The translations under genes were made by a program, and so were the position numbers. A DNA stretch of 64,000 bases from positions 1,076,911-1,140,910 of the forward strand of contig OY969431.1 of assembly GCA_963699305.1 (NCBI GenBank), written 5' to 3'. Below the pieces are notes generated by a model. The model was given only the letters and a program-made list of their open reading frames with translations. It had not been told where the DNA came from and made no database searches. This DNA is from an uncultured Chloroflexia bacterium (GTDB lineage: Bacteria; Chloroflexota; Anaerolineae; Anaerolineales; Anaerolineaceae). Numbering within the stretch: the first letter of the stretch is position 1; each line of letters opens with the position of its first letter. Positions 2,697 to 52,745 of this stretch are shown piece after piece.

Positions 2697-3299
2697 GTGA
2701 TTATGGAATCTGCTGAATACACAAATAAATTATTGGGTTTTTTTAAAGTTCTGGCTGATGCCAATCGGTTGAAGATCATAGGATTGCTCGCGGTTCGATC
2801 TTACACGGTTGAAGATTTAGCAAAAGCGTTGAACCTTACACCTTCCACAACATCGCACCATCTTTCACGTCTCGCTGATCTTGATCTGGTCACTGCACAA
2901 GCTAAAGGGTATTACAGCATATATTCACTCCAGACCGAAACGCTCGAAACCATGTCGCGGAATCTGCTCGCACGTGAGAATTTGCCTAACCTGATTGCCT
3001 CACAGGCAGGTAATGAGTTTGCTAAAAAGGTGATCAACGAATTCACTTCAGAAGATGAAAGCATTAAAGCATTCCCCGCCCAACGCAAGAAAATGGACGT
3101 CCTGCTTGCCTATATTGCCAGATCCTTTGAGCTTGATAATAAATACTCGGAGAAAATGGTTAATGAAATATTAAAGAAGTACAACGAGGATTTTGCCACC
3201 CTGAGACGAGAACTGATCGATATACAATATATGGGGCGTAAATCGGGCGAATATTGGCTAACTGAGCTGGGATATAATTCCAGCAGGAATTATCGATGA
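2697..3299 (+). CDS. ArsR-family winged-helix regulator with a C-terminal DUF2087-like domain
   Basis: The N-terminus FKVLADANRLKIIGLLAVRSYTVEDLAKALNLTPSTTSHHLSRLADLDLV is a typical ArsR/SmtB HTH. The C-terminal half is of the type usually annotated DUF2087. Confidence 0.75.
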   Translation: MIMESAEYTNKLLGFFKVLADANRLKIIGLLAVRSYTVEDLAKALNLTPSTTSHHLSRLADLDLVTAQAKGYYSIYSLQTETLETMSRNLLARENLPNLIASQAGNEFAKKVINEFTSEDESIKAFPAQRKKMDVLLAYIARSFELDNKYSEKMVNEILKKYNEDFATLRRELIDIQYMGRKSGEYWLTELGYNSSRNYR

Positions 3300-4403
3300 C
3301 AACACAGCACCTTGACCATCTCCATACCCTAATTTCCACTGACAGGCTGGATGCAATTGTACTAAACCCGGGACCCAGCCTGATCCATTTAACAGGGTTG
3401 GGTTTCCATCTCATGGAAAGACCGGTTGTGCTGTTTGTTAAACCCCATCGAACCTCAGCGTTAATTCTTCCCGGTCTTGAAATTCAAAAAGCAAAGGAAG
3501 CGAAAATCCCGCTTGAATTATTTCAATATGGAGATAATCCAGCTTCTTGGCAAAATATCTTCAAGCAGGTTGTTACTGACTTTAAAATTGGCTCGGCAAT
3601 AGTTGGAGTTGAACCTACTCGGATACGCTTCCTGGAATTGAATTTTCTTCAAGGCGTTGCACGGAAAATGAAGTTGGTTTCTGCAGAGACCTCTTTAGTA
3701 GAGATTAGAATTTGCAAGGAAGCTGATGAAATCGAGAACATGCGCAAGGCAGTTAATATTCCGGAAACCGCGTTGCTTGCTGTAATCCCAAAAATTCATG
3801 CAGGTGTTACAGAAAAACACATTGCAGCTGAATTTAACCATTGAGCTTCTCAGGGCAGGTTCGGCTCCCGAAATGCCCTTTAGCCCCATTGTGTCGGGAG
3901 GTCCCCACAGTGCTGATCCACATGCGGAACCATCCGATAGACCCTTGCAGTCCGGTGACATGCTGGTCATTGATTGGGGCGCAGCATACAACGGTTATAT
4001 TTCCGATCTTACCCGTTCGTTTGCAATAGATCAAATTTCCCCGGAATTTGAAAAAATTGGAAAAACAGTAATGGAAGCTAATTTAGCAGCAACCATGATA
4101 ATTAGACCGGGAATTTCAGCAGGGGAAGCCGATGAAGCAGCTCGAAAAGTTATCAGGCAGGCGGGTTATGGTGATTTTTTCACGCACCGGTTGGGTCATG
4201 GGATAGGAAGGGAGCCACATGAATCTCCTTATATCTTCAACGCAAATAAACAAAACCTGAAAACTGGCATGACTTTTACCATCGAACCGGGGGTTTATCT
4301 CGCACAGCAAGGTGGTGTTCGCATCGAAGATAATGTGGTTGTGACTGCTCAAGGTGTGGAAGTATTAAGTTCACTCCCTCGGGAAGTCAGAATCCTGCAT
4401 TAA
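3296..4403 (+). CDS. Xaa-Pro aminopeptidase/dipeptidase (M24B), split by a 1-nt insertion near 3830-3842
   Basis: The first ORF ends ...GVTEKHIAAEFNH*. The next frame continues IELLRAGSAPEMPFSPIVSGGPHSADPHAEPSDRPLQSGDMLVIDWGAAYNGYISDLTRSF...HRLGHGIGREPHE...EPGVY...IEDNVVV, which carries the M24 metal-ligand motifs. Removing one C from the CC at 3838-3839 restores the frame. Confidence 0.85.

Positions 4404-29716: not shown

Positions 29717-29729
<13 letters not shown>
29088..29729 (-). CDS. nadD: nicotinate-nucleotide adenylyltransferase
   Basis: GIFGGTFNPPHLGHL (HxGH) and the ISSRQIRQR motif. The start could equally be the MEKK codon at 29717. Confidence 0.9.
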
Positions 29730-31032
<1,303 letters not shown>

Positions 31033-39654: not shown

Positions 39655-40395
39655 TTACGCTCTGGTCAACCTCATCGTATAACGATAGCGGTCTCCGCGG
39701 TACAAGATTTTTACAAACTCCACAGCTTTCCGCTCCTGTGACCAAAGCACCCGTTCATTTAGCAATAAGGGAGCTCCAATCTTCACCTGCAAAAGGTCGG
39801 CTTCTTCCTTTGTTGCCAACGTTACTTCGAGTGTTTCGTCTGCCGCCCAAGGGATGATGTGAAGTTTCTCCTGAAGGATTTTGTATAAAGACCCGGCATT
39901 TTCCAATTCCGTTTGAGTGATTATTTGGTCCGGTCGCAAAATAACATATGAAGTTTGCAGTCCAATTGGCAGATCATCACCCAGGCGCACTCTCAGGATC
40001 TTTAATGCTTTTGTGCCTGCGGATAATTCCAACTTTTTCAAGACATCTGCAGGCGCATCTTCATACGCCATTTCAAGAATTTGTTGACCTGGTTTGATTC
40101 CGCGTTTGATAAGATCTTCCGAAAAGCTAGTCAGTTCCAGCAACCCTTTTTGCAACTTCTGTGGCATGACAAAGGTCCCTCGCCCATGCTCGCGGTATAA
40201 GTACCCCTCATGAATCAATAACTCGATGGCTTGCCGAATGGTTGGGCGGCTGACTTGATAAAGCGTTTCCAATTGCCGTTCGGATGGGATGGGTGATTGA
40301 GGTGGCCATTCCCTTTTGGTTATTTTTTGGCGCAAAATATTCGCCAATTGGTGATATTTCGGCATTGCATAATATGGATCAATCATGCTTGACAT
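39655..40395 (-). CDS. GntR-family transcriptional regulator (HutC subfamily, UTRA effector domain)
   Basis: An N-terminal wHTH (PSERQLETLYQVSRPTIRQAIELLIHEGYLYREHGRGTFV) and a UTRA-like C-terminus. It is transcribed divergently from the BMC operon. Confidence 0.85.
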   Translation of the reverse strand: MSSMIDPYYAMPKYHQLANILRQKITKREWPPQSPIPSERQLETLYQVSRPTIRQAIELLIHEGYLYREHGRGTFVMPQKLQKGLLELTSFSEDLIKRGIKPGQQILEMAYEDAPADVLKKLELSAGTKALKILRVRLGDDLPIGLQTSYVILRPDQIITQTELENAGSLYKILQEKLHIIPWAADETLEVTLATKEEADLLQVKIGAPLLLNERVLWSQERKAVEFVKILYRGDRYRYTMRLTRA

Positions 40396-40432
40396 TTCGC
40401 CCTCGGCGTGCTATTATTATGACGTAAAGTCG

Positions 40433-40479
40433 TTATGTGGTCATTACCAGTTATCGTTTAACTTGTTAATACCACATAA
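40433..40479. promoter_or_regulatory. candidate operator: a 9-bp inverted repeat in the gntR / rpiB divergent intergenic region
   Basis: TTATGTGGT (40433-40441) and ACCACATAA (40471-40479), with a 29-nt spacer. Each arm contains a GT...AC-type core of the kind HutC/GntR proteins bind. Confidence 0.3.
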
Positions 40480-40512
40480 ATAGTGTAGCACTTTTCAACA
40501 GGAAAAAGCAAG

Positions 40513-41097
40513 ATGTCATCTGTCTCTGATCCAGAAATCCGAGCAATCGTTCAAAATGTCCTCCAAAAGATGGGGGGTTCGCCTTCCATGGCTTCCACTA
40601 ACCCAACGAAGGAACCGCAGGCATTTTCCTTACCTGTTCTGCAAAAGATGATCGCCATCGGTTCGGATCACGGTGGATTTGCTTTGAAAGAATTGTTAAA
40701 ACCATATATCGTCGAATTGGGATTTCAATACACCGACTGTGGACCGATGGATAAGACTGCGGTGGATTATCCCGACTATGCATTGGCTGTGGCACAGCAA
40801 ATTACGTCCAAAAAAGCGATCCGCGGGATCATGATCGATGGTGCGGGAATCGGTTCTTGTATGGTTGCCAATAAAGTACCTGGAATCCGGGCGGCTCTGT
40901 GCTATGACATCTCTACTGCAATAAACAGCCGAGAGCATAACGATGCCAACCTTCTCACCCTCGGTGCCGGATTGATCGGCGAGAACCTTGCCAAGCAGAT
41001 TGTCAAAACATGGTTGTCGACGGATTTCGGTGGTGGTCGGCATGCTAAACGTGTCGATAAAATCATAACGATAGAAAAACAATTCCTTAAGGGATAG
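40513..41097 (+). CDS. rpiB: ribose-5-phosphate isomerase B (RpiB/LacAB family) with an N-terminal encapsulation-peptide-like extension of about 45 aa
   Basis: The core is [20 protein letters not shown]...DCGP...VDYPDYA...[26 protein letters not shown]...[13 protein letters not shown]. The extension is [17 protein letters not shown] followed by a Pro/Ser/Thr-rich linker. Confidence 0.85.
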
Positions 41098-41105
41098 GAG
41101 CAAAA

Positions 41106-42038
41106 ATGACTCCTGATACAAAAACGGTTGAGACATTAGTTGAGGTTATTACCCGGGAGATTCTAGGTGCTTACAAGGAGCACGACATCCAAGCAGCAAT
41201 CTCCCAGGGATACATGTGCAAACGCGACTGTGCCAGTGGCTTGTGTGCGACAACTTGCTTCAACAAGATTGGACAAGTGGTCAGCGCTGGTGCTGAAAGG
41301 CTTACCTCCACGGTAGGCATGGTCCCTCCCGATCCGAGTCTTGCACACATGATTGATCACACATTGCTTAAGCAGGACACAACCCCAGAGAAGATCACAC
41401 AGCTTTGCATGGAAGCACGTAAATACAACTTCGCCAGTGTATGTATCAATCCGACCTACGTAAAACTATGCGCTGATCTTCTTCGCGGTTCCAATGTGAA
41501 GGTATGTGCTGTCGTCGGATTTCCACTTGGTGCTACCCTCCCCGAAATTAAAGTACTCGAAACAAAAATGGTCATCGAGAACGGTGCACAGGAAGTGGAT
41601 ATGGTTGTAAACATCGGCGCCTTGAAAGCTCGGGATTCCGCTCTCGTAGCGCGTGATATTCGCGGGGTGGTCTCTACTGCTCACTCGATGGGTGCTATCG
41701 TCAAAGTCATCATCGAAGCGTGCTTGTTGAATGATGAAGAAAAAGTATTAGCCTGCTTACTTTCCAAGGAAGCAGGGGCTGATTACGTGAAAACATCAAC
41801 CGGCTTCTCCACAGGCGGTGCTACGCTGCATGATGTTGAATTAATGCGTAAAACGGTAGGCCCTGATATGGGTGTCAAAGCCGCTGGTGGGATCCAGACC
41901 AAGGAAGATGCTGAGAAAATGGTGAAGGCCGGTGCAACACGCATTGGCGCAAGTGCAGGGATAAAGATCATCCAGGCTGCACCAGATGCCCCGGTGTCTC
42001 AACCACAACCAGCCATGGCTGGCGTGAAAAGTTATTAA
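41106..42038 (+). CDS. deoC: deoxyribose-phosphate aldolase with an N-terminal extension of about 80 aa (amphipathic helix plus a 4-Cys motif)
   Basis: The core is [12 protein letters not shown]...[11 protein letters not shown]...[11 protein letters not shown]...[12 protein letters not shown]...[10 protein letters not shown]...[16 protein letters not shown]...GVKAAGGI...[10 protein letters not shown], with the Schiff-base lysine in its usual context. Confidence 0.9.
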
Positions 42039-42050
42039 TCGGAGTATTCC

Positions 42051-42341
42051 ATGTTAATCGCACGCGTGATCGGCACAGTAATTTCAACCATCAAAGACGA
42101 AAAACTAATAGGTCGGAAACTATTGATCGTCCGGCAGACGGACGAAACCGGCAGTCCCGTCGGAAAACCGTATGTGGCAATCGATACAGTGGATGCTGGT
42201 GTAGGTGACTTGGTACTTACTGCTTCTGGATCAAGCGCCCGCCAGACCAACATTACCAAGGATACTCCTGTGGATGCGGTCATTATGGCTATGTTGGATT
42301 CCATGGAAGTGGATGGCAAGGTTGTATTCCGCAAAGAGTAA
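42051..42341 (+). CDS. BMC vertex protein (BMC-P, EutN/CcmL family), copy 1
   Basis: MLIARVIGTVISTIKDEKLIGRKLLIV...VAIDTVDAGVGDLVLTASGSSAR, 96 aa. Confidence 0.85.
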   Translation: MLIARVIGTVISTIKDEKLIGRKLLIVRQTDETGSPVGKPYVAIDTVDAGVGDLVLTASGSSARQTNITKDTPVDAVIMAMLDSMEVDGKVVFRKE

Positions 42342-42363
42342 GAAAAGAATGTAAAGGCACATC

Positions 42364-43809
42364 ATGGATAAGGATTTGCTCTCAATTCAGGAAGCCCGCG
42401 ATCTGGCAACTGCTGCCCGCAATGCCCAACAAGTTTGGGCAAAAGCAAGCCAGTCGCAGGTCGATGCTGTTTGTACTGCCATGGCGGATGCCGCTTATCA
42501 GGCGGCAGAACGGTTGGGGCGAATGGCAACCGATGAAACCGGTTACGGAGTGCCGCTTCACAAAAAACTGAAAAATGAATTCGGGTCCAAAAACGTCTGG
42601 GAAAGCATCCGGAAATTAAAACCGTCGGCGTAATCCACCATGACCCGGAAAAAAGGATCTATGATATTGCATGGCCGGTGGGAGTTGTCTGTGCATTGAC
42701 ACCGAGCACCAACCCAACCTCTACAACGATGTTCAAAATTTTGATTGCTGTAAAAGCAAGGGATGCCATTATTGTTGCCCCCCACCCTTCGGCAGTCAAA
42801 TGCTGCACTGAAACAGCGCTGTTGATGGCGCGTGCCGCTGAAGATGCTGGAGCGCCAAAAGGGTTGATCAGTTGCATGCAAAACGTTTCGTTGCAGGGCA
42901 CGCAGGAATTGATGAACCACAAGTACATCGCCCTTATCCTGGCCACAGGTGGTTCAGCCATGGTGAAGGCTGCTCATTCCGTTGGCAAACCGGCATACGG
43001 CGTGGGACCGGGAAATGTTCCAGTGTATGTGGACCGCAGCGCTGATGTCGAGAAAGCAGCTCGTTATATCGTTGCCTCCAAAGCTTTTGACTACTCCACA
43101 ATCTGCGCCACAGAACAGGCGGTTATCGCAGATACTCCCATGCGCTCAACTTGAAGACTTGATGAAAATCCAGGGTGCATATTTTGTTGATGAAAACCAG
43201 GCAAACCTTTTGCGTAAATCTCTTTTCTTTAACGATGGCGACATCAACCCTGCCACGGTTGGTAAATCACCGCAAGTGCTGGCGGGCATGGCGGGATTTT
43301 CCATCCCTTCAACCGCGCGCATACTCGTTGCCAGATTGAGTAAAGTCGGCAAAGATGAGCCTCTTTCACGGGAAAAGCTGACCACGGTTCTGGGTTGGTA
43401 TGAGACAGATGGTTGGGAAGCAGGTTGTGAACGCTCCATCGAATTAATCCTATTTGGTGGACGCGGACATACCCAAATCATCCATGCAACGGATGAAAAA
43501 GTAATTATGGAATTTGGCTTGGAAAAACCGGTTTTCCGCATCCTAGTCAACACTATGGGCACGTTGGGCGCTATTGGGTTGACTACCGGTATCATGCCTT
43601 CATTGACATTAGGTGCAGGTGGTGTAGGTGGCTCTATCACCGGAGACAACATCACTGCATATCACATGTTCAATGTAAAAAGATTGGCTTACGAACGCAT
43701 CCCTCCACCCTTGGCAGCGTTGAATCCCGGTGAACAAATTTCAAGTGTTTCACCCGTGGAGCTCGAAAAAATTGTTGAAACCGTCGTCAGAGAAATTCTA
43801 AAATCGTGA
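42364..43809 (+). CDS. CoA-acylating aldehyde dehydrogenase (PduP/EutE-like), interrupted by two compensating 1-nt indels near 42608-42622 and 43125-43150
   Basis: Three consecutive ORFs join into one ALDH: LSIQEARDLATAARNAQQVW...; KTVGVIHHDPEKRIYDIAWPVGVVCALTPSTNPTSTTMFK...ATGGSAMVKAAHSVGKPAYGVGPGNVP...STICATEQAVIAD (the catalytic Cys context); then GAYFVDENQ...REKLTTVLGWY...IHATDEK...VNTMGTLGAIG. The C-terminal tail VELEKIVETVVREILKS is an amphipathic helix. Confidence 0.85.
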
Positions 43810-43853
43810 ATAACCACAGATTAGTCGTGGATTAAAAAGAAAGGACAAATAAT

Positions 43854-44180
43854 ATGTCTCCTGAAACTGCTCTAATCGCTCTCGGAATGGTTGAGACCAA
43901 AGGTCTGGTCGGTGCTATCGAAGCTGCCGATGCCATGGTCAAAGCCGCAAACGTCTCCCTGCTTGGCTCGGAATATGTTGGTGGAGGGTACGTTACAGTC
44001 ATGGTGCGCGGCGACGTAGGCGCTGTGAAAGCCGCCACTGATGCAGGCGCTGCTGCCGCAAAACGTGTCGGCGAACTTGTGTCGGTCCACGTCATCCCAC
44101 GACCGCACAGCGAAGTCGAAATGATCCTTCCTGCAGGTTCGAAAGGTCAAATCGGCGGTCGTACCTCAGACAAGAAATAA
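43854..44180 (+). CDS. BMC shell hexamer protein (BMC-H, PduA/EutM/CcmK-type)
   Basis: [77 protein letters not shown] is a canonical BMC domain. Confidence 0.95.
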
Positions 44181-44329
44181 TCGGGTGACATAACATGCCA
44201 GAGAAGGTACTGAACGATTCTTCTCTGGCAATATCCCGACTAGTGGATGCGACCATAAAGGTCGGGAGCCCGATGAATATCTCACTTCTTCCAATCGTCT
44301 TCTGGAAGATGGAAATATAGGAGTGAATC

Positions 44330-44959
44330 ATGGCTGATGAATTTTCATTACGTTGCTATTGTTATTTGGATCGCATGCAGCCCCAGTATGCCGCCTTCGT
44401 CGGGACGGTTACGCAAGGCGATCTCCCCACTGAAGGAATGGCTGCACTGTATGTGGAAATGTCTCCTGGAAATGAAGTTTTCCGTGTGGTCGATATCGCT
44501 GTAAAGGCAACCGAGTCCAAACCTGGTGCCCAAATTGTGGAGCGCGAATTTGGCATGTTCGAAGTGCACTCGCTCAACCAGGCAGCTGTGATTGAAGCAG
44601 GAAACGTTGTGCTGAACCGTTTGGGTCTTAAAGTTCAGGATCGTATCAAACCGCAGGTGGTATCCACCCAAGTCATCACACGGATAGACCCGTATCAATC
44701 GCAGTTGTTGAACCGCTTCCGGCGGGGCAGCATGCTAGTGCCCGGCGAAACCATGCTTGTCTTGGAATGTGCTCCTGCAGCATATATTAATTACGCTTGC
44801 AATGAAGCGGAAAAGAAAGCATCCATCAAAGTCATCCATGTTTCATCTGTAGGTCGCTTTGGTCGTATGTGGCTTTCCGGTTCTGAAGCGGAAATTGTCA
44901 CGGCGAAAAACGCAGCCATCCAGGCCTTAGAAGCATTGGAAGGCAAGCCGGGCGCATGA
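44330..44959 (+). CDS. tandem-domain BMC shell protein (BMC-T)
   Basis: A 209-aa protein with two BMC-like halves: ...YVEMSPGNEVFRVVDIAVKATESKPGAQIVEREFGMFEVH... and ...LVLECAPAAYINYACNEAEKKASIKVIHVSSVGRFGRMWLSGSEAEI... Confidence 0.75.
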   Translation: MADEFSLRCYCYLDRMQPQYAAFVGTVTQGDLPTEGMAALYVEMSPGNEVFRVVDIAVKATESKPGAQIVEREFGMFEVHSLNQAAVIEAGNVVLNRLGLKVQDRIKPQVVSTQVITRIDPYQSQLLNRFRRGSMLVPGETMLVLECAPAAYINYACNEAEKKASIKVIHVSSVGRFGRMWLSGSEAEIVTAKNAAIQALEALEGKPGA

Positions 44960-44986
44960 TGTGGTCTTTTCCCTATTGGAGTAACT

Positions 44987-45337
44987 ATGCCTAAAGAATT
45001 TTTTACCGAACGTGATATCGAAGACATGGTGAAACGTGGAACGACGTCGCTGCAGCTTTCGGATGACATCGTGCTGACAGAGCTCGCATACGAAAAAGCA
45101 CAACGGCTGGGTTTGCAGTTGATCAATCCGAACATCAAACCTCCAGCAGCTCCTGAGCGTCCATATATCTCAACCTTACCTTTTCCTGCATCGAATGCAG
45201 CAATGGCTGCGCCAGTCCCAACGGATCTTCGTCAGCGGATTAAGGATGCAGTTGCAATTAAATTGGGAGTTCAAGTGGATCCTGTCCTGCTGGATTCCAT
45301 CATCACCCGAGTTCTCGAGACCTTGAACAGGAAGTAA
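44987..45337 (+). CDS. hypothetical BMC-associated protein with a C-terminal amphipathic helix
   Basis: A 116-aa protein embedded among the shell genes. It has an N-terminal module of about 45 aa (FTERDIEDMVKRGTTSLQLSDDIVLTELAYEKAQRLGLQL), a Pro/Ala-rich linker and the C-terminal helix DPVLLDSIITRVLETLNRK. Confidence 0.5.
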   Translation: MPKEFFTERDIEDMVKRGTTSLQLSDDIVLTELAYEKAQRLGLQLINPNIKPPAAPERPYISTLPFPASNAAMAAPVPTDLRQRIKDAVAIKLGVQVDPVLLDSIITRVLETLNRK

Positions 45338-45340
45338 CCA

Positions 45341-45661
45341 ATGTTATTAGGCCGCGTCAAGGGCACCGCTATTAGCACCATGAAATATCCGGGTATGGAA
45401 GGTCTGAAGTTGCTCATCGTCCAGCCGTTGAACAAGAAACTGGAACCGATTGGCGAGTATCAGGTCGCTGCTGATATCGTTGATGCTGGGATGGACGATT
45501 TGTGTGTGATGGTACGCTCGCGTGAAGCAGCACTGGCGTTGCCGGATCTCAAATTCGTTCCCGTGGACTTAACCCTCGTGGGAATCGTTGACCAGCTGGA
45601 AGTTCGCCCGGATGGTGAATTTGATTTCACCCTAAAACCAGGATGGGTTAAATACACATAG
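45341..45661 (+). CDS. BMC vertex protein (BMC-P, EutN/CcmL family), copy 2
   Basis: MLLGRVKGTAISTMKYPGMEGLKLLIVQPL...VAADIVDAGMDDLCVMVRSREAA. Confidence 0.85.
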   Translation: MLLGRVKGTAISTMKYPGMEGLKLLIVQPLNKKLEPIGEYQVAADIVDAGMDDLCVMVRSREAALALPDLKFVPVDLTLVGIVDQLEVRPDGEFDFTLKPGWVKYT

Positions 45662-45704
45662 GTTGTTTGTCAAAGGATTCGATGATCGAAAGGATACACT
45701 CGAA

Positions 45705-45983
45705 ATGATCCTCGGAAAGATCGTCGGTACGGTTGTTACCACCATCAGTCATCCTCATTATAAGAACAGGCGATTGCTGGTTGTTCAGCCATTGATCATG
45801 CCCGGTGAAAAATCCGACGATGATTTTATTGCCATCGATAATACGCATGCTGGCATTGGCGATACCGTGCTGGTCAATCGGGAGGGTAATGGTGCCCGTC
45901 AAGTATTAATAAATCCGGATGCTTGTATTATTTCAGTCATCGTAGGTATTGTCGATTCGGTGAATATTCCTTCATCTTCGTAA
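45705..45983 (+). CDS. BMC vertex protein (BMC-P, EutN/CcmL family), copy 3
   Basis: MILGKIVGTVVTTISHPHYKNRRLLVVQPL...IAIDNTHAGIGDTVLVNREGNGAR. I preferred the ATG at 45705 over the TTG at 45663. Confidence 0.85.
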   Translation: MILGKIVGTVVTTISHPHYKNRRLLVVQPLIMPGEKSDDDFIAIDNTHAGIGDTVLVNREGNGARQVLINPDACIISVIVGIVDSVNIPSSS

Positions 45984-46071: not shown

Positions 46072-47001
46072 GTGGAGACTGATATGCGCACTTTGAGATC
46101 TTTTTCCCAACCTACCTCGTCGGATACCTTCAAGGAAGCGGTCGAAAAGATCAAAGCAATGCAATCCCGCGAGATCAATACACATGGCTTTAACCCACAG
46201 CTTAAGACTATTTTTCTTTCTCATGGGAAGAAGACCAAACGTGCTGTTTTGTGGTTGCATGGTTACACATCCGCTACTTTGCAATTTATACGTTTGGCAG
46301 AATTATGTTTTAAGAAAGGATATAACGTTCTTGTCCCATGCATGCCGCACCATGGTTTAAAGGACCGCCTGACACCAGAGATTGGGAAGATGACTGCCAG
46401 GGAACAAAAGCAATTCGTCGAAAATATGGTGGACACCATGCATGGCCTTGGACATGCAGTTGTGGTTGGAGGTCTTTCGATGGGAGGAACCATGACTGCC
46501 TGGATTGCACAGCAGCGCCCGGATGTAGATACAGCCATTATCATTGCTGCAGCATTTGGTTTCAAAGTCATTCCCACATCGTTGACCCGGGTCGCCACCT
46601 TGGCTCTTTTAGCCTTACCAAACATAAGGCAATGGTGGGACGATGAGAAAAAAGAGACTGTGCAGGATCCATGGTATGGTTACCCACATCGTTATACTCG
46701 AAGCTTGGTGCAACTGCTTGATCTTGGCCATCAGGTGCTGAAGTTGGCAAAACATAATCCTCCAGCTGCAAAAAAAGTCTGGGTCGTCATTAATGACCAT
46801 GATGAGGCAGTGGATAATAAAATGCTTCAAAGACTTGCGGATACCTGGCATAATTCGCGTGCAATAAATGCGTCGATTTACCATTTTCCAAATAAGTTGG
46901 GTCTCGATCATGATTGCATCAGCGTCGAGCATTCCAAGGATAATCCCAGGTTCGTCTATCCAGTCCTGATGAAAATGGTTGAAGGTGAGCAAATAAAATA
47001 A
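46072..47001 (+). CDS. alpha/beta hydrolase
   Basis: LWLHGYTS..., the nucleophile elbow GGLSMGG, and a late HD...D...H pattern. A TGCTATACAAT -10-like element about 30 nt upstream suggests it has its own promoter. Confidence 0.7.
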   Translation: METDMRTLRSFSQPTSSDTFKEAVEKIKAMQSREINTHGFNPQLKTIFLSHGKKTKRAVLWLHGYTSATLQFIRLAELCFKKGYNVLVPCMPHHGLKDRLTPEIGKMTAREQKQFVENMVDTMHGLGHAVVVGGLSMGGTMTAWIAQQRPDVDTAIIIAAAFGFKVIPTSLTRVATLALLALPNIRQWWDDEKKETVQDPWYGYPHRYTRSLVQLLDLGHQVLKLAKHNPPAAKKVWVVINDHDEAVDNKMLQRLADTWHNSRAINASIYHFPNKLGLDHDCISVEHSKDNPRFVYPVLMKMVEGEQIK

Positions 47002-47073
47002 GCCACCGAAGGGAGTCGAACCCTTGACCCGCCGCTTACGAAGCGGCTGCTCTGCCAACTGAGCTACGGTGGC
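47001..47073 (-). tRNA. tRNA-Thr (anticodon CGU)
   Basis: The reverse complement GCCACCGTAGCTCAGTTGGCAGAGCAGCCGCTTCGTAAGCGGCGGGTCAAGGGTTCGACTCCCTTCGGTGGCT folds as a cloverleaf with anticodon loop UUCGUAA. No CCA is encoded. Confidence 0.9.
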
Positions 47074-51730: not shown

Positions 51731-52745
51731 ATGAAAAATTCATCTTTGGTCCGAATTCTCGGTAAAATCACTCAGCCTTTTTATGGTGGAAGTGGACATA
51801 TCCTGATGTTCCACCGCGTCTGTAATTCCAATACGATTTATCAGATTCCTGGACAGCAAAGTATCGAAGTTTCGATTGAGCATTTTACAGGTATTTTGGA
51901 TTATTTTGAAAAACACGGTTATACCTTCCTCTCGTTGGATGACCTCGCAAAAGATTTACTGCAAGGAAATATCAAGAAACCTTTTGTTGTTTTCACTTTT
52001 GATGATGGTTATATCGATAATTTGGAAATCGCATTTCCGATTCTGAAGAATAGAAACATTCCATTTGCCATTTACGTAGCACCTTCCTTCCCGGATCAAA
52101 AAGCGGTGCTTTGGCGTTATATCCTTCAGGATGCCGTGCGCAACAAGAACTCGCTTAACTTTTCCATTTCTGGCATCCACTATGAAATGGATTTGTCTGA
52201 TTCCCTTGAGCTCCCCCGGAATATTAAACTGCTCCGATCATTCATTAACAACTACCGCACCCACCGATTTCAACAAGCGACTGGAGCAAATATTTGGAAA
52301 GAGTTTACAGCAGATGCTTGAAATGACAGTAAATCTGCGGTTATCTTGGGATCAAATTCGACAGCTTTCTTCAGATCCGCTCGTCACCATAGCCGCGCAT
52401 ACGTTGAACCACTATCCCCTCGCCCAATTGACCGAAGCACAAGCAACTGTAGAGATACTGGAAAGCAAGATGGTTTTGGAATCCAGGATCAATCGAGCTG
52501 TCAACCATTTTGCATACCCCTATGGATCATTTGGAAAACGCGAAATGAGGATTGTGCAGTCTTCTGGTTTTACAACCGCTGTTACCACTCATCATGCCAA
52601 TATCTTCCCTGAACATGCCCGGCAAATGTTCGCCCTTCCTCGATGGGATATCGCAAACATAAACACAATCGACGATATCGAGCTTTCCATGAATGGATTG
52701 CTCCCAGCCCGGTTGAATGGATTCCGGAGAATTGTGACTTTGTGA
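51731..52745 (+). CDS. polysaccharide deacetylase (NodB homology domain), split by a 1-nt insertion near 52258-52266
   Basis: FVVFTFDDGYIDN (the NodB TFDDG motif) is in part one. The other frame carries DFNKRLEQIF...LSWDQIRQLSSDPLVTIAAHTLNHYPL...FAYPYG. Confidence 0.8.

Follow-up and report, generated by a model that had tools for sequence, protein, structure and literature searches.

The SPU (sugar-phosphate utilising) class of bacterial microcompartments was defined in 2014 and was split in 2021 into seven subtypes, one of which, SPU6, was assigned to the Anaerolineae (PMC8217296). Dwyer, Sutter and Kerfeld then published, in 2024, a biochemical study of the SPU6 operon of Chloroflexi bacterium GWB2_54_36, in which the deoxyribose-5-phosphate aldolase (DERA) was active on deoxyribose-5-phosphate and formed a complex with the RPI, itself of negligible activity on ribose-5-phosphate owing to an Asp in place of the catalytic Cys (PMC11585597). 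Further afield, a 2025 preprint described the reconstitution of the shells of an archaeal SPU-type compartment and reported that the SPU-type loci of the Hodarchaeales derive from Myxococcota (PMC12747264).

The locus considered here lies in a 64-kb stretch of DNA, referred to below as the window, and is very probably a genuine bacterial microcompartment operon for the breakdown of deoxyribose-5-phosphate, of the SPU6 subtype, from the Anaerolineae (Chloroflexota). It agrees with the published subtype in gene content, gene order, the positions of its encapsulation peptides and taxon, and is a good example of this catalogued type rather than a new system. Compared by published description, the GWB2_54_36 operon likewise has one BMC-H, one BMC-Tdp and three BMC-P, a DERA with an N-terminal extension (about 70 residues, as against about 79 here), an RPI with an N-terminal encapsulation peptide and the Cys-to-Asp replacement, an AldDH with a C-terminal encapsulation peptide, neither PTAC nor PduS, and hypothetical protein(s) without a Pfam assignment, all in a Chloroflexota host (PMC11585597). 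It differs in coming from another species and in having two hypothetical genes instead of one, whereas the aldehyde dehydrogenase (ALDH) gene of the present locus is frameshifted in the assembly. The order rpiB-DERA-P-ALDH-H-Tdp-hyp-P-P is constant across all of the approximately 80 related loci compared, which come from MAGs of Anaerolineae or otherwise of Chloroflexota, the sole exception being a contig that was binned as Promethearchaeota.

An earlier note, made from the sequence of the window, had placed the locus in the SPU class, and this placement holds and can be sharpened to SPU6 on the same four grounds; the position in the published catalogue, for which that note had called, is thereby given (PMC8217296). 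Its proposal of a DeoC-type aldolase working with an acylating ALDH is likewise upheld. On the other hand, its statements that no member of the class had been characterised and that this was the most likely undescribed system of the window have to be withdrawn, since SPU6 was catalogued in 2021 (PMC8217296) and its DERA and RPI–DERA complex were assayed in 2024, so that it is partly studied biochemically (PMC11585597). Its nine co-directional, tightly spaced genes are all present where it had put them, and most of the gaps between them measure only 3–44 nt, but one, between BMC-H and BMC-T, measures 149 nt. A scan of the plus strand inside the operon found no terminator-like sites, and the nine genes would be read as one mRNA. 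Finally, of its shell set accompanied by three enzymes, the Pfam and PDB matches, which are far beyond chance, leave the identities standing, but the ALDH is read as three ORFs and the ninth gene codes for no shell protein or known enzyme.

All five shell genes are on the plus strand. Their complement, a BMC-P triplet with a single BMC-H and a single BMC-Tdp, is a trait specific to SPU6, as are the C-terminal position of the encapsulation peptide on the ALDH, the long N-terminal extension of the DERA, the Asp for Cys in the RPI and the lack of PTAC and PduS (PMC11585597, PMC8217296). In a Pfam search, in which DeoC and LacAB_rpiB were also matched, the hexamer protein BMC-H (43854–44180, 108 aa) matches BMC at 9e-30, and the pentamer proteins BMC-P1 (42051–42341, 96 aa, over its full length), BMC-P2 (45341–45661, 106 aa) and BMC-P3 (45705–45983, 92 aa) match EutN_CcmL at 2e-28, 1e-21 and 5e-20, respectively. 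BMC-P3 can also be read from a TTG at 45663, but the EutN_CcmL match begins at residue 15 of that longer ORF and the homologs are called at 92 aa; its start is thus likely to be the ATG at 45705. The BMC-T (44330–44959, 209 aa) is of the double-stacking type (BMC-Tdp), with full-length PDB matches to CcmP (3e-63), Haliangium HO-5816 (3e-57) and CsoS1D (7e-50), and its homologs bear the precomputed Pfam domain CsoS1D_N. From these domains, it may be supposed that BMC-H tiles the shell, that the CcmP-like BMC-Tdp provides a large gated pore and that the three BMC-P paralogs close the shell at its vertices. Among the scanned proteins of the locus and its flanks, a set that excluded the ALDH pieces, there was no Pfam match to PTAC or PduS. 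Because the locus is without PTAC, alcohol dehydrogenase and PduS, acetyl-CoA, CoA and NAD(H) would have to cross the shell, presumably through the BMC-Tdp.

The DERA (41106–42038, plus strand, 310 aa; Pfam DeoC 4e-18) matches the PDB DERA 5dbu at 9e-81 over residues 80–292 and has the motifs EVDMV, VKVII and YVKTSTG, which hold the catalytic Asp, Lys and Lys. Its N-terminal extension, an amphipathic helix followed by a Cys-containing segment, is kept in 68 loci. The RpiB-like protein (40513–41097, plus strand, 194 aa) matches LacAB_rpiB at 5e-53 from residue 47 and a solved RpiB in the PDB at 2e-41; it begins with an extension of about 46 aa containing an encapsulation-peptide-like helix, the motif of which is conserved across the related loci. 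In the alignment to PDB 3ph3, IMIDGAGIG stands against IVICGTGLG, which puts an Asp at the position of the catalytic Cys, as in 64 of 66 related loci. The DERA would split 2-deoxyribose-5-phosphate into glyceraldehyde-3-phosphate and acetaldehyde, as was shown for the SPU6 homolog, and the Asp variant most likely does not isomerise but serves as a partner organising the DERA in the core, as with its homolog (PMC11585597). However, since even that study left the role of this protein unsettled, a sugar phosphate other than deoxyribose-5-phosphate could be the one that enters: the compartment would be real, but either the aldolase would be supplied with another (deoxy)sugar phosphate, isomerised by the Asp variant, or the DERA itself would act on a 2-deoxy sugar phosphate of another kind. 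The RpiB-like protein is kept throughout, and its conserved Asp in an otherwise intact active-site region could mean an activity that is changed rather than lost; the published study, too, could assign no role to RPI activity and allowed for further substrates (PMC11585597). Moreover, there are no deoxynucleoside catabolic genes near the locus in the annotated parts of the window, and because these parts (with about 1–29 kb only partly annotated) contain no nucleoside phosphorylase or phosphopentomutase gene, the route by which deoxyribose-5-phosphate is supplied is not visible in the window. Nevertheless, the activities measured on the homologs, that of the DERA on deoxyribose-5-phosphate and that, negligible, of the RPI on ribose-5-phosphate, together with a DERA core very near the canonical enzymes, make a different substrate very improbable.

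A second doubt concerns the CoA-acylating ALDH (42364–43809, plus strand), which would convert the trapped acetaldehyde into acetyl-CoA with reduction of NAD+ to NADH, to judge from its family. It is read as three ORFs (42364–42633, one ending at 43154 and one ending at 43809), which lie in frames 1, 3 and 1, the frame being closed by stops at 42633 and 43154, and is broken by three 1-nt deletions near 42615, 43142 and 43146, as mapped against two related loci (L002 and L003). Taken at face value, this would make the gene a true pseudogene and the operon a decaying, non-functional locus in which acetaldehyde is no longer detoxified and the compartment is being lost. Such a reading could point to three separate deletions within one 1.4-kb gene, among the indels detected in the window, and to the concentration in the ALDH region (about 25 of 29, within about 840 nt) of the mismatches to a 99.3%-identical contig from another sample. 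Yet this same contig, which begins just 3' of the first deletion site, keeps its frame through both of the downstream ones, and a 92%-identical contig carries the full 482-aa ORF. The repaired protein, of 482 aa, has thousands of relatives and is 96% identical to an intact PF00171 protein of the same length, with no further lesions in any of its three pieces; the catalytic Cys motif, STICATEQ, is intact. At the C-terminus there is an encapsulation-peptide-like helix, PVELEKIVETVVREILKS, that is conserved across loci. The other eight genes of the operon are intact, whereas the window's essential GTPase Obg, an M24 peptidase and a polysaccharide deacetylase are likewise frameshifted. Related assemblies with contig_N naming have frameshifts at other positions, in the ALDH and in further genes, a sister assembly having its own in GAPDH, BMC-T, BMC-P and ALDH, and the clustering of mismatches and indels is consistent with a mixed-strain consensus. 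Since the near-identical contig is unbroken at the two sites it covers and further genes of the window, Obg among them, are broken as well, the three deletions are almost certainly errors of assembly rather than biology, and a decaying operon is highly unlikely.

The 149-nt gap between BMC-H and BMC-T (44181–44329, plus strand) is non-coding and strongly structured, with a minimum free energy of -58.2 kcal/mol (z = -5.6 against shuffles); the final hairpin base-pairs with the ribosome-binding site of BMC-T, GGAG. A search of this spacer against Rfam gave no match. Across loci, the H–T gap is bimodal: either about 75–245 nt or about 895 nt, the latter encoding an actin/Hsp70-fold, EutJ-like ORF that is present in many SPU6 loci and absent here. 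When 40 short gaps (60–260 nt) were folded, half (20) had z < -2.

The ninth gene (44987–45337, plus strand), which the earlier note left undescribed, encodes a conserved hypothetical protein of 116 aa with 816 homologs and with relatives encoded in 387 species genomes; its best match among the genome representatives scanned, a set from which the window's own species is absent, is 68% identical. Pfam, PDB-sequence and Foldseek searches gave no match. An N-terminal beta-alpha-beta-beta-alpha-beta domain (residues 4–46), a nearly invariant PPAAPxRPY motif (6 of 8 fixed residues invariant), a disordered Pro/Ala linker and a C-terminal, encapsulation-peptide-like helical hairpin (80–115) make up the protein, the AF2 model of which has a mean pLDDT of 77. 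Wherever a locus extends over both neighbours, the gene is flanked by BMC-T and BMC-P2, and here BMC-P2 starts 3 nt after it, which is also the median spacing in 82 loci. Proteins of an EutABC-type and of another microcompartment locus have two to three copies of the domain in tandem and end in the same C-terminal motif, and this recurrence suggests a scaffold role; rather than an enzyme, the protein is most likely a scaffold or adaptor. Cargo would be targeted by amphipathic helices, N-terminal in the RpiB-like protein and DERA and C-terminal in the ALDH and the 116-aa protein.

Control by a HutC-type GntR regulator, which had also been proposed, gains support from the intergenic region. The regulator gene (39655–40395, minus strand, 246 aa; GntR HTH 9e-18 at residues 14–76, UTRA 3e-30 at 98–238) is divergent from the operon, and a GntR homolog adjoins rpiB in most related loci, whether divergent or co-directional. 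The candidate operon promoter (40389–40417, plus strand), TTGACA and TATTAT separated by 17 nt, with an upstream TG (extended -10), matches the consensus at 11 of 12 positions and is the top-scoring promoter match of the region; in 37 related loci, the intergenic region has the TGnTAtnAT element at the corresponding place. Just 3' of the promoter lies the conserved dre-like candidate operator TGTGGTCAYTACCAG (40436–40450), a palindrome, TGTGGTCATTACCAG, with a TGGT-N4-ACCA core. The exact 15-mer occurs once in the window and once per locus in 39 related loci, and lies between the -10 element and rpiB wherever the intergenic region was extracted. Its position, about 10–25 nt downstream of the -10 element, fits a repressor roadblock. 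The GntR/UTRA protein would thus probably repress this single promoter by binding the palindrome and might be released by a sugar-phosphate effector, most likely deoxyribose-5-phosphate or a close relative. A paper on the dre site of NagR is cited in the SPU6 study (PMC11585597).

Beyond SPU6, the EUT3-type ethanolamine microcompartment has the same ALDH–BMC-H–BMC-Tdp module, after which comes a member of the 116-aa protein's family: in the example examined (L087), a 255-aa protein comes after the CsoS1D_N gene. This protein has three repeats as against one here, and the signature enzymes are EutA/B/C instead of DERA and RPI. The published catalogue also links the AldDh and BMC-Tdp clades of EUT3 and SPU6 (PMC8217296). 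SPU1–5, SPU7 and the Hodarchaeales SPU-type loci (PMC12747264) share the core of DERA and acylating ALDH, the BMC-P triplet and deoxyribose-5-phosphate as the predicted entry metabolite. These other subtypes differ in that they usually carry PTAC and/or a PduS-type NADH dehydrogenase, have N-terminal rather than C-terminal encapsulation peptides on the ALDH and have different shell complements (BMC-Ts). The cytosolic deo pathway of E. coli, in which deoC converts deoxyribose-5-phosphate into glyceraldehyde-3-phosphate and acetaldehyde, has the same aldolase chemistry but is without a shell, encapsulation peptides or a dedicated acylating ALDH, and its regulators, DeoR and CytR, belong to another family than the GntR protein found here. 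That protein shares its GntR HTH and UTRA architecture with the HutC regulators of the NagR/DasR type, the regulon of which differs. Their dre operators, with the consensus AGTGGTCTAGACCACT, are likewise palindromes with a TGGT...ACCA core, but the spacer is CTAG in dre and CAYT in the present locus.

The DNA from 39655 to 45983 carries a regulator gene on the minus strand and nine genes on the plus strand, as established by an ORF list and a Pfam scan. The regulator (39655-40395) has an N-terminal GntR winged helix-turn-helix (PF00392, 9e-18) and a C-terminal UTRA effector domain (PF07702, 3e-30), the architecture of the HutC subfamily. The plus-strand series opens with the genes of an RpiB-like protein (40513-41097; PF02502, 5e-53, the domain beginning at residue 47) and of a deoxyribose-phosphate aldolase, DeoC or DERA (41106-42038; PF01791, 4e-18, from residue 82). 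These are followed by a first BMC-P gene (42051-42341; EutN_CcmL, PF03319, 2e-28), an aldehyde dehydrogenase (ALDH) gene spread over three ORFs and assigned to PF00171 by its homologs (42364-43809), a BMC-H gene (43854-44180; PF00936, 9e-30), a tandem BMC-T gene (44330-44959), a 116-aa ORF with no Pfam match (44987-45337), and two more BMC-P genes (45341-45661, PF03319, 1e-21; and 45663 or 45705 to 45983, PF03319, 5e-20). The shell genes defined by PF00936 and PF03319 cluster with the enzymes on one strand within 5.5 kb. Since the BMC-T protein matches CcmP (3e-63), Haliangium HO-5816 (3e-57) and CsoS1D (7e-50) in the PDB over its full length, it is of the double-stacking type (BMC-Tdp), and the shell set consists of a single BMC-H, one BMC-Tdp and a BMC-P triplet. 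The matches bear out the shell and enzyme calls of the earlier note, and the regulator, shell genes and enzymes that it listed are all present; its inventory took no account of the broken ALDH frame or of the undescribed 116-aa protein that makes up the nine genes.

The genes are separated by 3-44 nt except for BMC-H and BMC-T, which lie 149 nt apart, and no terminator-like site was found on the plus strand inside the operon. An Rfam search over the whole window returned three tRNAs only, and nothing in the operon. Pfam matches to PTAC or PduS (PF06130, PF01512) were absent from the eight operon genes other than the ALDH pieces and from several flanking genes (a hydrolase, a GT4 glycosyltransferase and a CofD-family gene); the intact homologs of the ALDH carry PF00171 only.

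Compartments of the sugar-phosphate utilising (SPU) class rank with the most widespread metabolosomes, and they are believed to enable anaerobes, Anaerolineae among them, to feed on the products of DNA breakdown. Sutter et al. catalogued more than 280 SPU loci in 2021 and divided them into seven subtypes, of which SPU6 occurs in Anaerolineae and has an AldDH and a BMC-Tdp that are sisters of their EUT3 counterparts (PMC8217296). [quoted passage not shown] They described an N-terminal extension of about 70 aa on DERA, an N-terminal encapsulation peptide on RPI, a C-terminal one on AldDH that is specific to SPU6, and the replacement of Cys66 by Asp in all SPU RPIs (PMC11585597). With SPU6 homologs, they showed that DERA is active on deoxyribose-5-P, that the activity of RPI on ribose-5-P is negligible, and that the two proteins form a stable complex (PMC11585597).

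The traits of the GWB2_54_36 proteins (the DERA extension, the RPI encapsulation peptide, the encapsulation-peptide-like C-terminal helix of the AldDH, whose frame is broken here, and the Cys-to-Asp change) are all present in the window and conserved in the related loci, so that the locus is, judged by its sequence, a member of SPU6. It comes from an Anaerolineae (Chloroflexota) genome, and syntenic, near-identical contigs were also found. The assignment to the SPU class made in the earlier note, to which the DERA, the Asp-variant RpiB, the shell set and the occurrence in Anaerolineae all conform, was therefore right. Its statement that no member of the class had been characterised is out of date given the assays of SPU6 DERA and RPI (PMC11585597), and its proposal of an undescribed system is mistaken, SPU6 having been catalogued in 2021 (PMC8217296) and partly characterised in 2024 (PMC11585597). 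The locus is one more clean example of SPU6 and does not alter what SPU compartments are understood to be; what it adds are details, namely a candidate operator and promoter pair, the alternation of a EutJ-like gene with a structured spacer, and a conserved small protein.

Residues 80-292 of the DERA match solved DERAs at 9e-81 and contain the Asp/Lys/Lys motifs. The PDB DERAs aligned to this core start near their own residue 4-7; the 79-aa N-terminal extension of the window's protein (41106-41340, residues 1-79), which free DERAs lack, is kept in 68 loci. Within the extension, C38 and C51 are invariant. Four cysteines, arranged as CX3CX4CX3C, occur in the lineage of the window and in several more; in other lineages the middle two are replaced. 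A four-Cys metal site was considered; because only the first and last cysteines are conserved across loci, a universal metal cluster is unsupported, and the cysteines could instead form a disulfide bridge or a metal site restricted to certain lineages. The exact DERA protein of the window has no record in the contig index. The RpiB-like protein aligns with solved RpiB (2e-41), with Asp at the position of the catalytic Cys (IMIDGAGIG versus IVICGTGLG), and it combines this substitution with a putative N-terminal encapsulation peptide, as described for SPU6.

The ALDH lies in frames 1, 3 and 1, and its joined pieces give a protein of 482 aa with 96% identity to an intact PF00171 protein. Its full-length relatives number in the thousands and carry the annotation acetylating acetaldehyde dehydrogenase, and the C-terminal helix, which is encapsulation-peptide-like and an SPU6-specific trait, is conserved. 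Alignment to two related loci, L002 (intact, 92% identical) and L003 (99.3% identical, from another sample), maps the interruption to three 1-nt deletions, one in an A-run near 42615 and two at 43142 and 43146, 4 nt apart. Most of the mismatches between the window (42627-43464) and L003 (1-840), about 25 of 29, fall within about 840 nt of the ALDH, the remaining 3.6 kb or so being nearly identical; such a cluster could stem from recombination at the strain level or from a mixed-strain consensus.

Three explanations of the broken frame can be weighed: programmed frameshifting, gene decay and assembly errors. The first break, at an A-run, would allow a -1 slip and with it programmed frameshifting, which is rejected because the downstream break consists of two separate 1-nt deletions without a slippery site, because L003 is in frame at both of these sites, and because the positions of the frameshifts vary among related assemblies. 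Beyond the ALDH, further genes of the window are broken. Obg, an essential GTPase, is split on the minus strand, with its N-terminal 51 aa in an ORF of their own (30820-30975) and the rest at 29717-30748; an M24 (Xaa-Pro) peptidase is split between 3296-3844 and 3798-4403; and a polysaccharide deacetylase is split by a 1-nt insertion (51731-52321 and 52131-52745). Each of these three genes falls into two ORFs through a frameshift, which points to an assembly prone to indels throughout the window and not in the ALDH alone. Moreover, L001, a sister assembly with the same synteny (1.15 Mb, 'contig_9018'), has frameshifts of its own, unlike those of the window, in GAPDH, ALDH, BMC-T and BMC-P3, and in five further related assemblies, with names of the form 'contig_N', the ALDH is split at five different positions. 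On the strength of the in-frame L003, the other broken genes and the differing frameshifts, the interruption very probably reflects errors of an indel-prone, probably long-read, assembly rather than gene decay, and we consider a true pseudogene most improbable.

A scan with the alignment of the 116-aa family, taking one genome per species, found a relative in 387 genomes, and 79 of the best 80 among these are MAGs of Anaerolineae or otherwise of Chloroflexota. The exception, L051 (JABCSI010000194.1, 7.9 kb, 0.57x coverage), is binned as a Promethearchaeota archaeon MAG and carries an Anaerolineae SPU6-type BMC-Tdp, a protein of the 116-aa family and a BMC-P. Most probably a Chloroflexota contig was placed in the wrong bin, a point that bears on the SPU-type compartments recently claimed for archaea.

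In tblastn searches with the window's proteins, every sufficiently long locus has the order rpiB-DERA-P-ALDH-H-T-hyp-P-P, and in most loci a GntR homolog, divergent or co-directional, adjoins rpiB. A functional link with the neighbouring GAPDH and PGK genes, whose products would take up the glyceraldehyde-3-P formed, was also considered. However, the synteny with PGK, GAPDH and the CofD-family gene is confined to the closest relatives (L001, L002 and L006) and absent from the other 75 or so loci, and these genes are therefore excluded from the system. An alpha/beta hydrolase gene (46072-47001) follows the operon in the closest relatives only, with a tRNA gene (47001-47073, minus strand) directly after it; both appear to lie outside the system. 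Elsewhere in the window, about 7 kb downstream, both subunits of a [NiFe]-hydrogenase, small and large, are encoded (PF01058, PF00374; 52747-54908), and a polysaccharide/O-antigen cluster, in which Wzy, Wzz, a GT2 glycosyltransferase and a methyltransferase were recognised, is located within roughly 12.9-29 kb.

The most promoter-like site of the region lies at 40389-40417 (TTGACA-17-TATTAT with an extended -10 TG). Some 18 nt downstream of it lies a candidate operator, the palindrome TGTGGTCATTACCAG (40436-40450), with a TGGT-N4-ACCA core, which is similar to the dre sites of HutC regulators. Intergenic regions from 37 loci share the -10 element and the palindrome, at a constant distance from each other. 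Each of 39 loci has a single exact copy of the 15-mer, as does the 64-kb window; wherever the intergenic region was extracted, this copy is located between the -10 element and rpiB. A paper on NagR is among the references of the GWB2_54_36 study (PMC11585597). This candidate pair for the GntR regulator would make it possible to determine directly which sugar phosphate is the inducer of the organelle.

Many SPU6 loci have a gap of about 895 nt between BMC-H and BMC-T, which encodes a EutJ-like protein of the actin/Hsp70 fold (L009, L010, L013, L017, L018, L020-L023 and others). This gene is missing from the window and from its close relatives, where its place is taken by the 149-nt spacer (44181-44329), which has a predicted folding energy of -58.2 kcal/mol (z = -5.6) and a last hairpin that pairs with the GGAG ribosome-binding site of BMC-T. 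Half of 40 short gaps at this position in other loci are likewise unusually structured. The predicted fold suggests that the spacer may attenuate BMC-T relative to BMC-H, and the choice between an optional EutJ-like gene and a spacer predicted to sequester the ribosome-binding site is a hint as to how the stoichiometry of the shell is determined.

The 116-aa protein has 816 homologs, all of about 115-125 aa and without Pfam assignment. In their alignment the N-terminal 46 residues are conserved, the motif PPAAPxRPY is nearly invariant, the Pro/Ala linker varies, and the C-terminal segment is conserved as RIxDAVxARLGxQVDPxLLDSIIxRVL. An AlphaFold2 model (mean pLDDT 77) predicts a beta-alpha-beta-beta-alpha-beta domain followed by a disordered linker and then by a helical hairpin. 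Pfam searches with 32 members gave nothing consistent, a profile search of the PDB with the family gave noise only (E of 0.03 or above), and the best Foldseek match of the protein to the PDB had an E of 0.36. The N-terminal 48 residues, used in an exhaustive HMMER search, returned 237 representatives, and 11 among the 150 of these that were listed have two matched copies of the domain. The multi-copy sequences retrieved have two or three copies, and most end in the same C-terminal motif.

One of these, a three-repeat protein with that motif (L087, 10001-10768), is encoded in a EutA/B/C locus directly after ALDH, BMC-H and BMC-Tdp, an order that, together with EutA/B/C, matches the description of EUT3 (PMC8217296). 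Another, with tandem copies (L088, 10001-10570), is found in a locus with genes for EutC-like, ALDH, PduS-like, Tdp and glutamate dehydrogenase proteins. Both tandem-domain proteins lie within the shell-gene module near BMC-Tdp. A search with the three-repeat relative P0280 was uninformative, yielding three short-contig matches only.

Given a repeat domain with an encapsulation-peptide-like tail, and a gene whose company is the shell module rather than the signature enzyme, the 116-aa protein is best explained as a putative scaffold or adaptor, and hence as a candidate assembly scaffold common to other compartment types. A fuller reading, which we put forward tentatively and with more doubt than conviction, is that it belongs, as the member with a single repeat, to an undescribed family of scaffolds or adaptors of microcompartments that would link the cargo core to the shell or to BMC-Tdp/BMC-P. 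The members of such a family would have one to three copies of a beta-alpha-beta-beta-alpha-beta domain of about 45 residues and a conserved C-terminal, encapsulation-peptide-like hairpin, and their genes would lie beside, or a few genes from, that of BMC-Tdp in compartments that differ in function, namely SPU6, the EutABC type and at least one other. The role proposed here for the family, that of joining cargo to shell, is by analogy with the repeat scaffolds of carboxysomes, CcmM and CsoS2.
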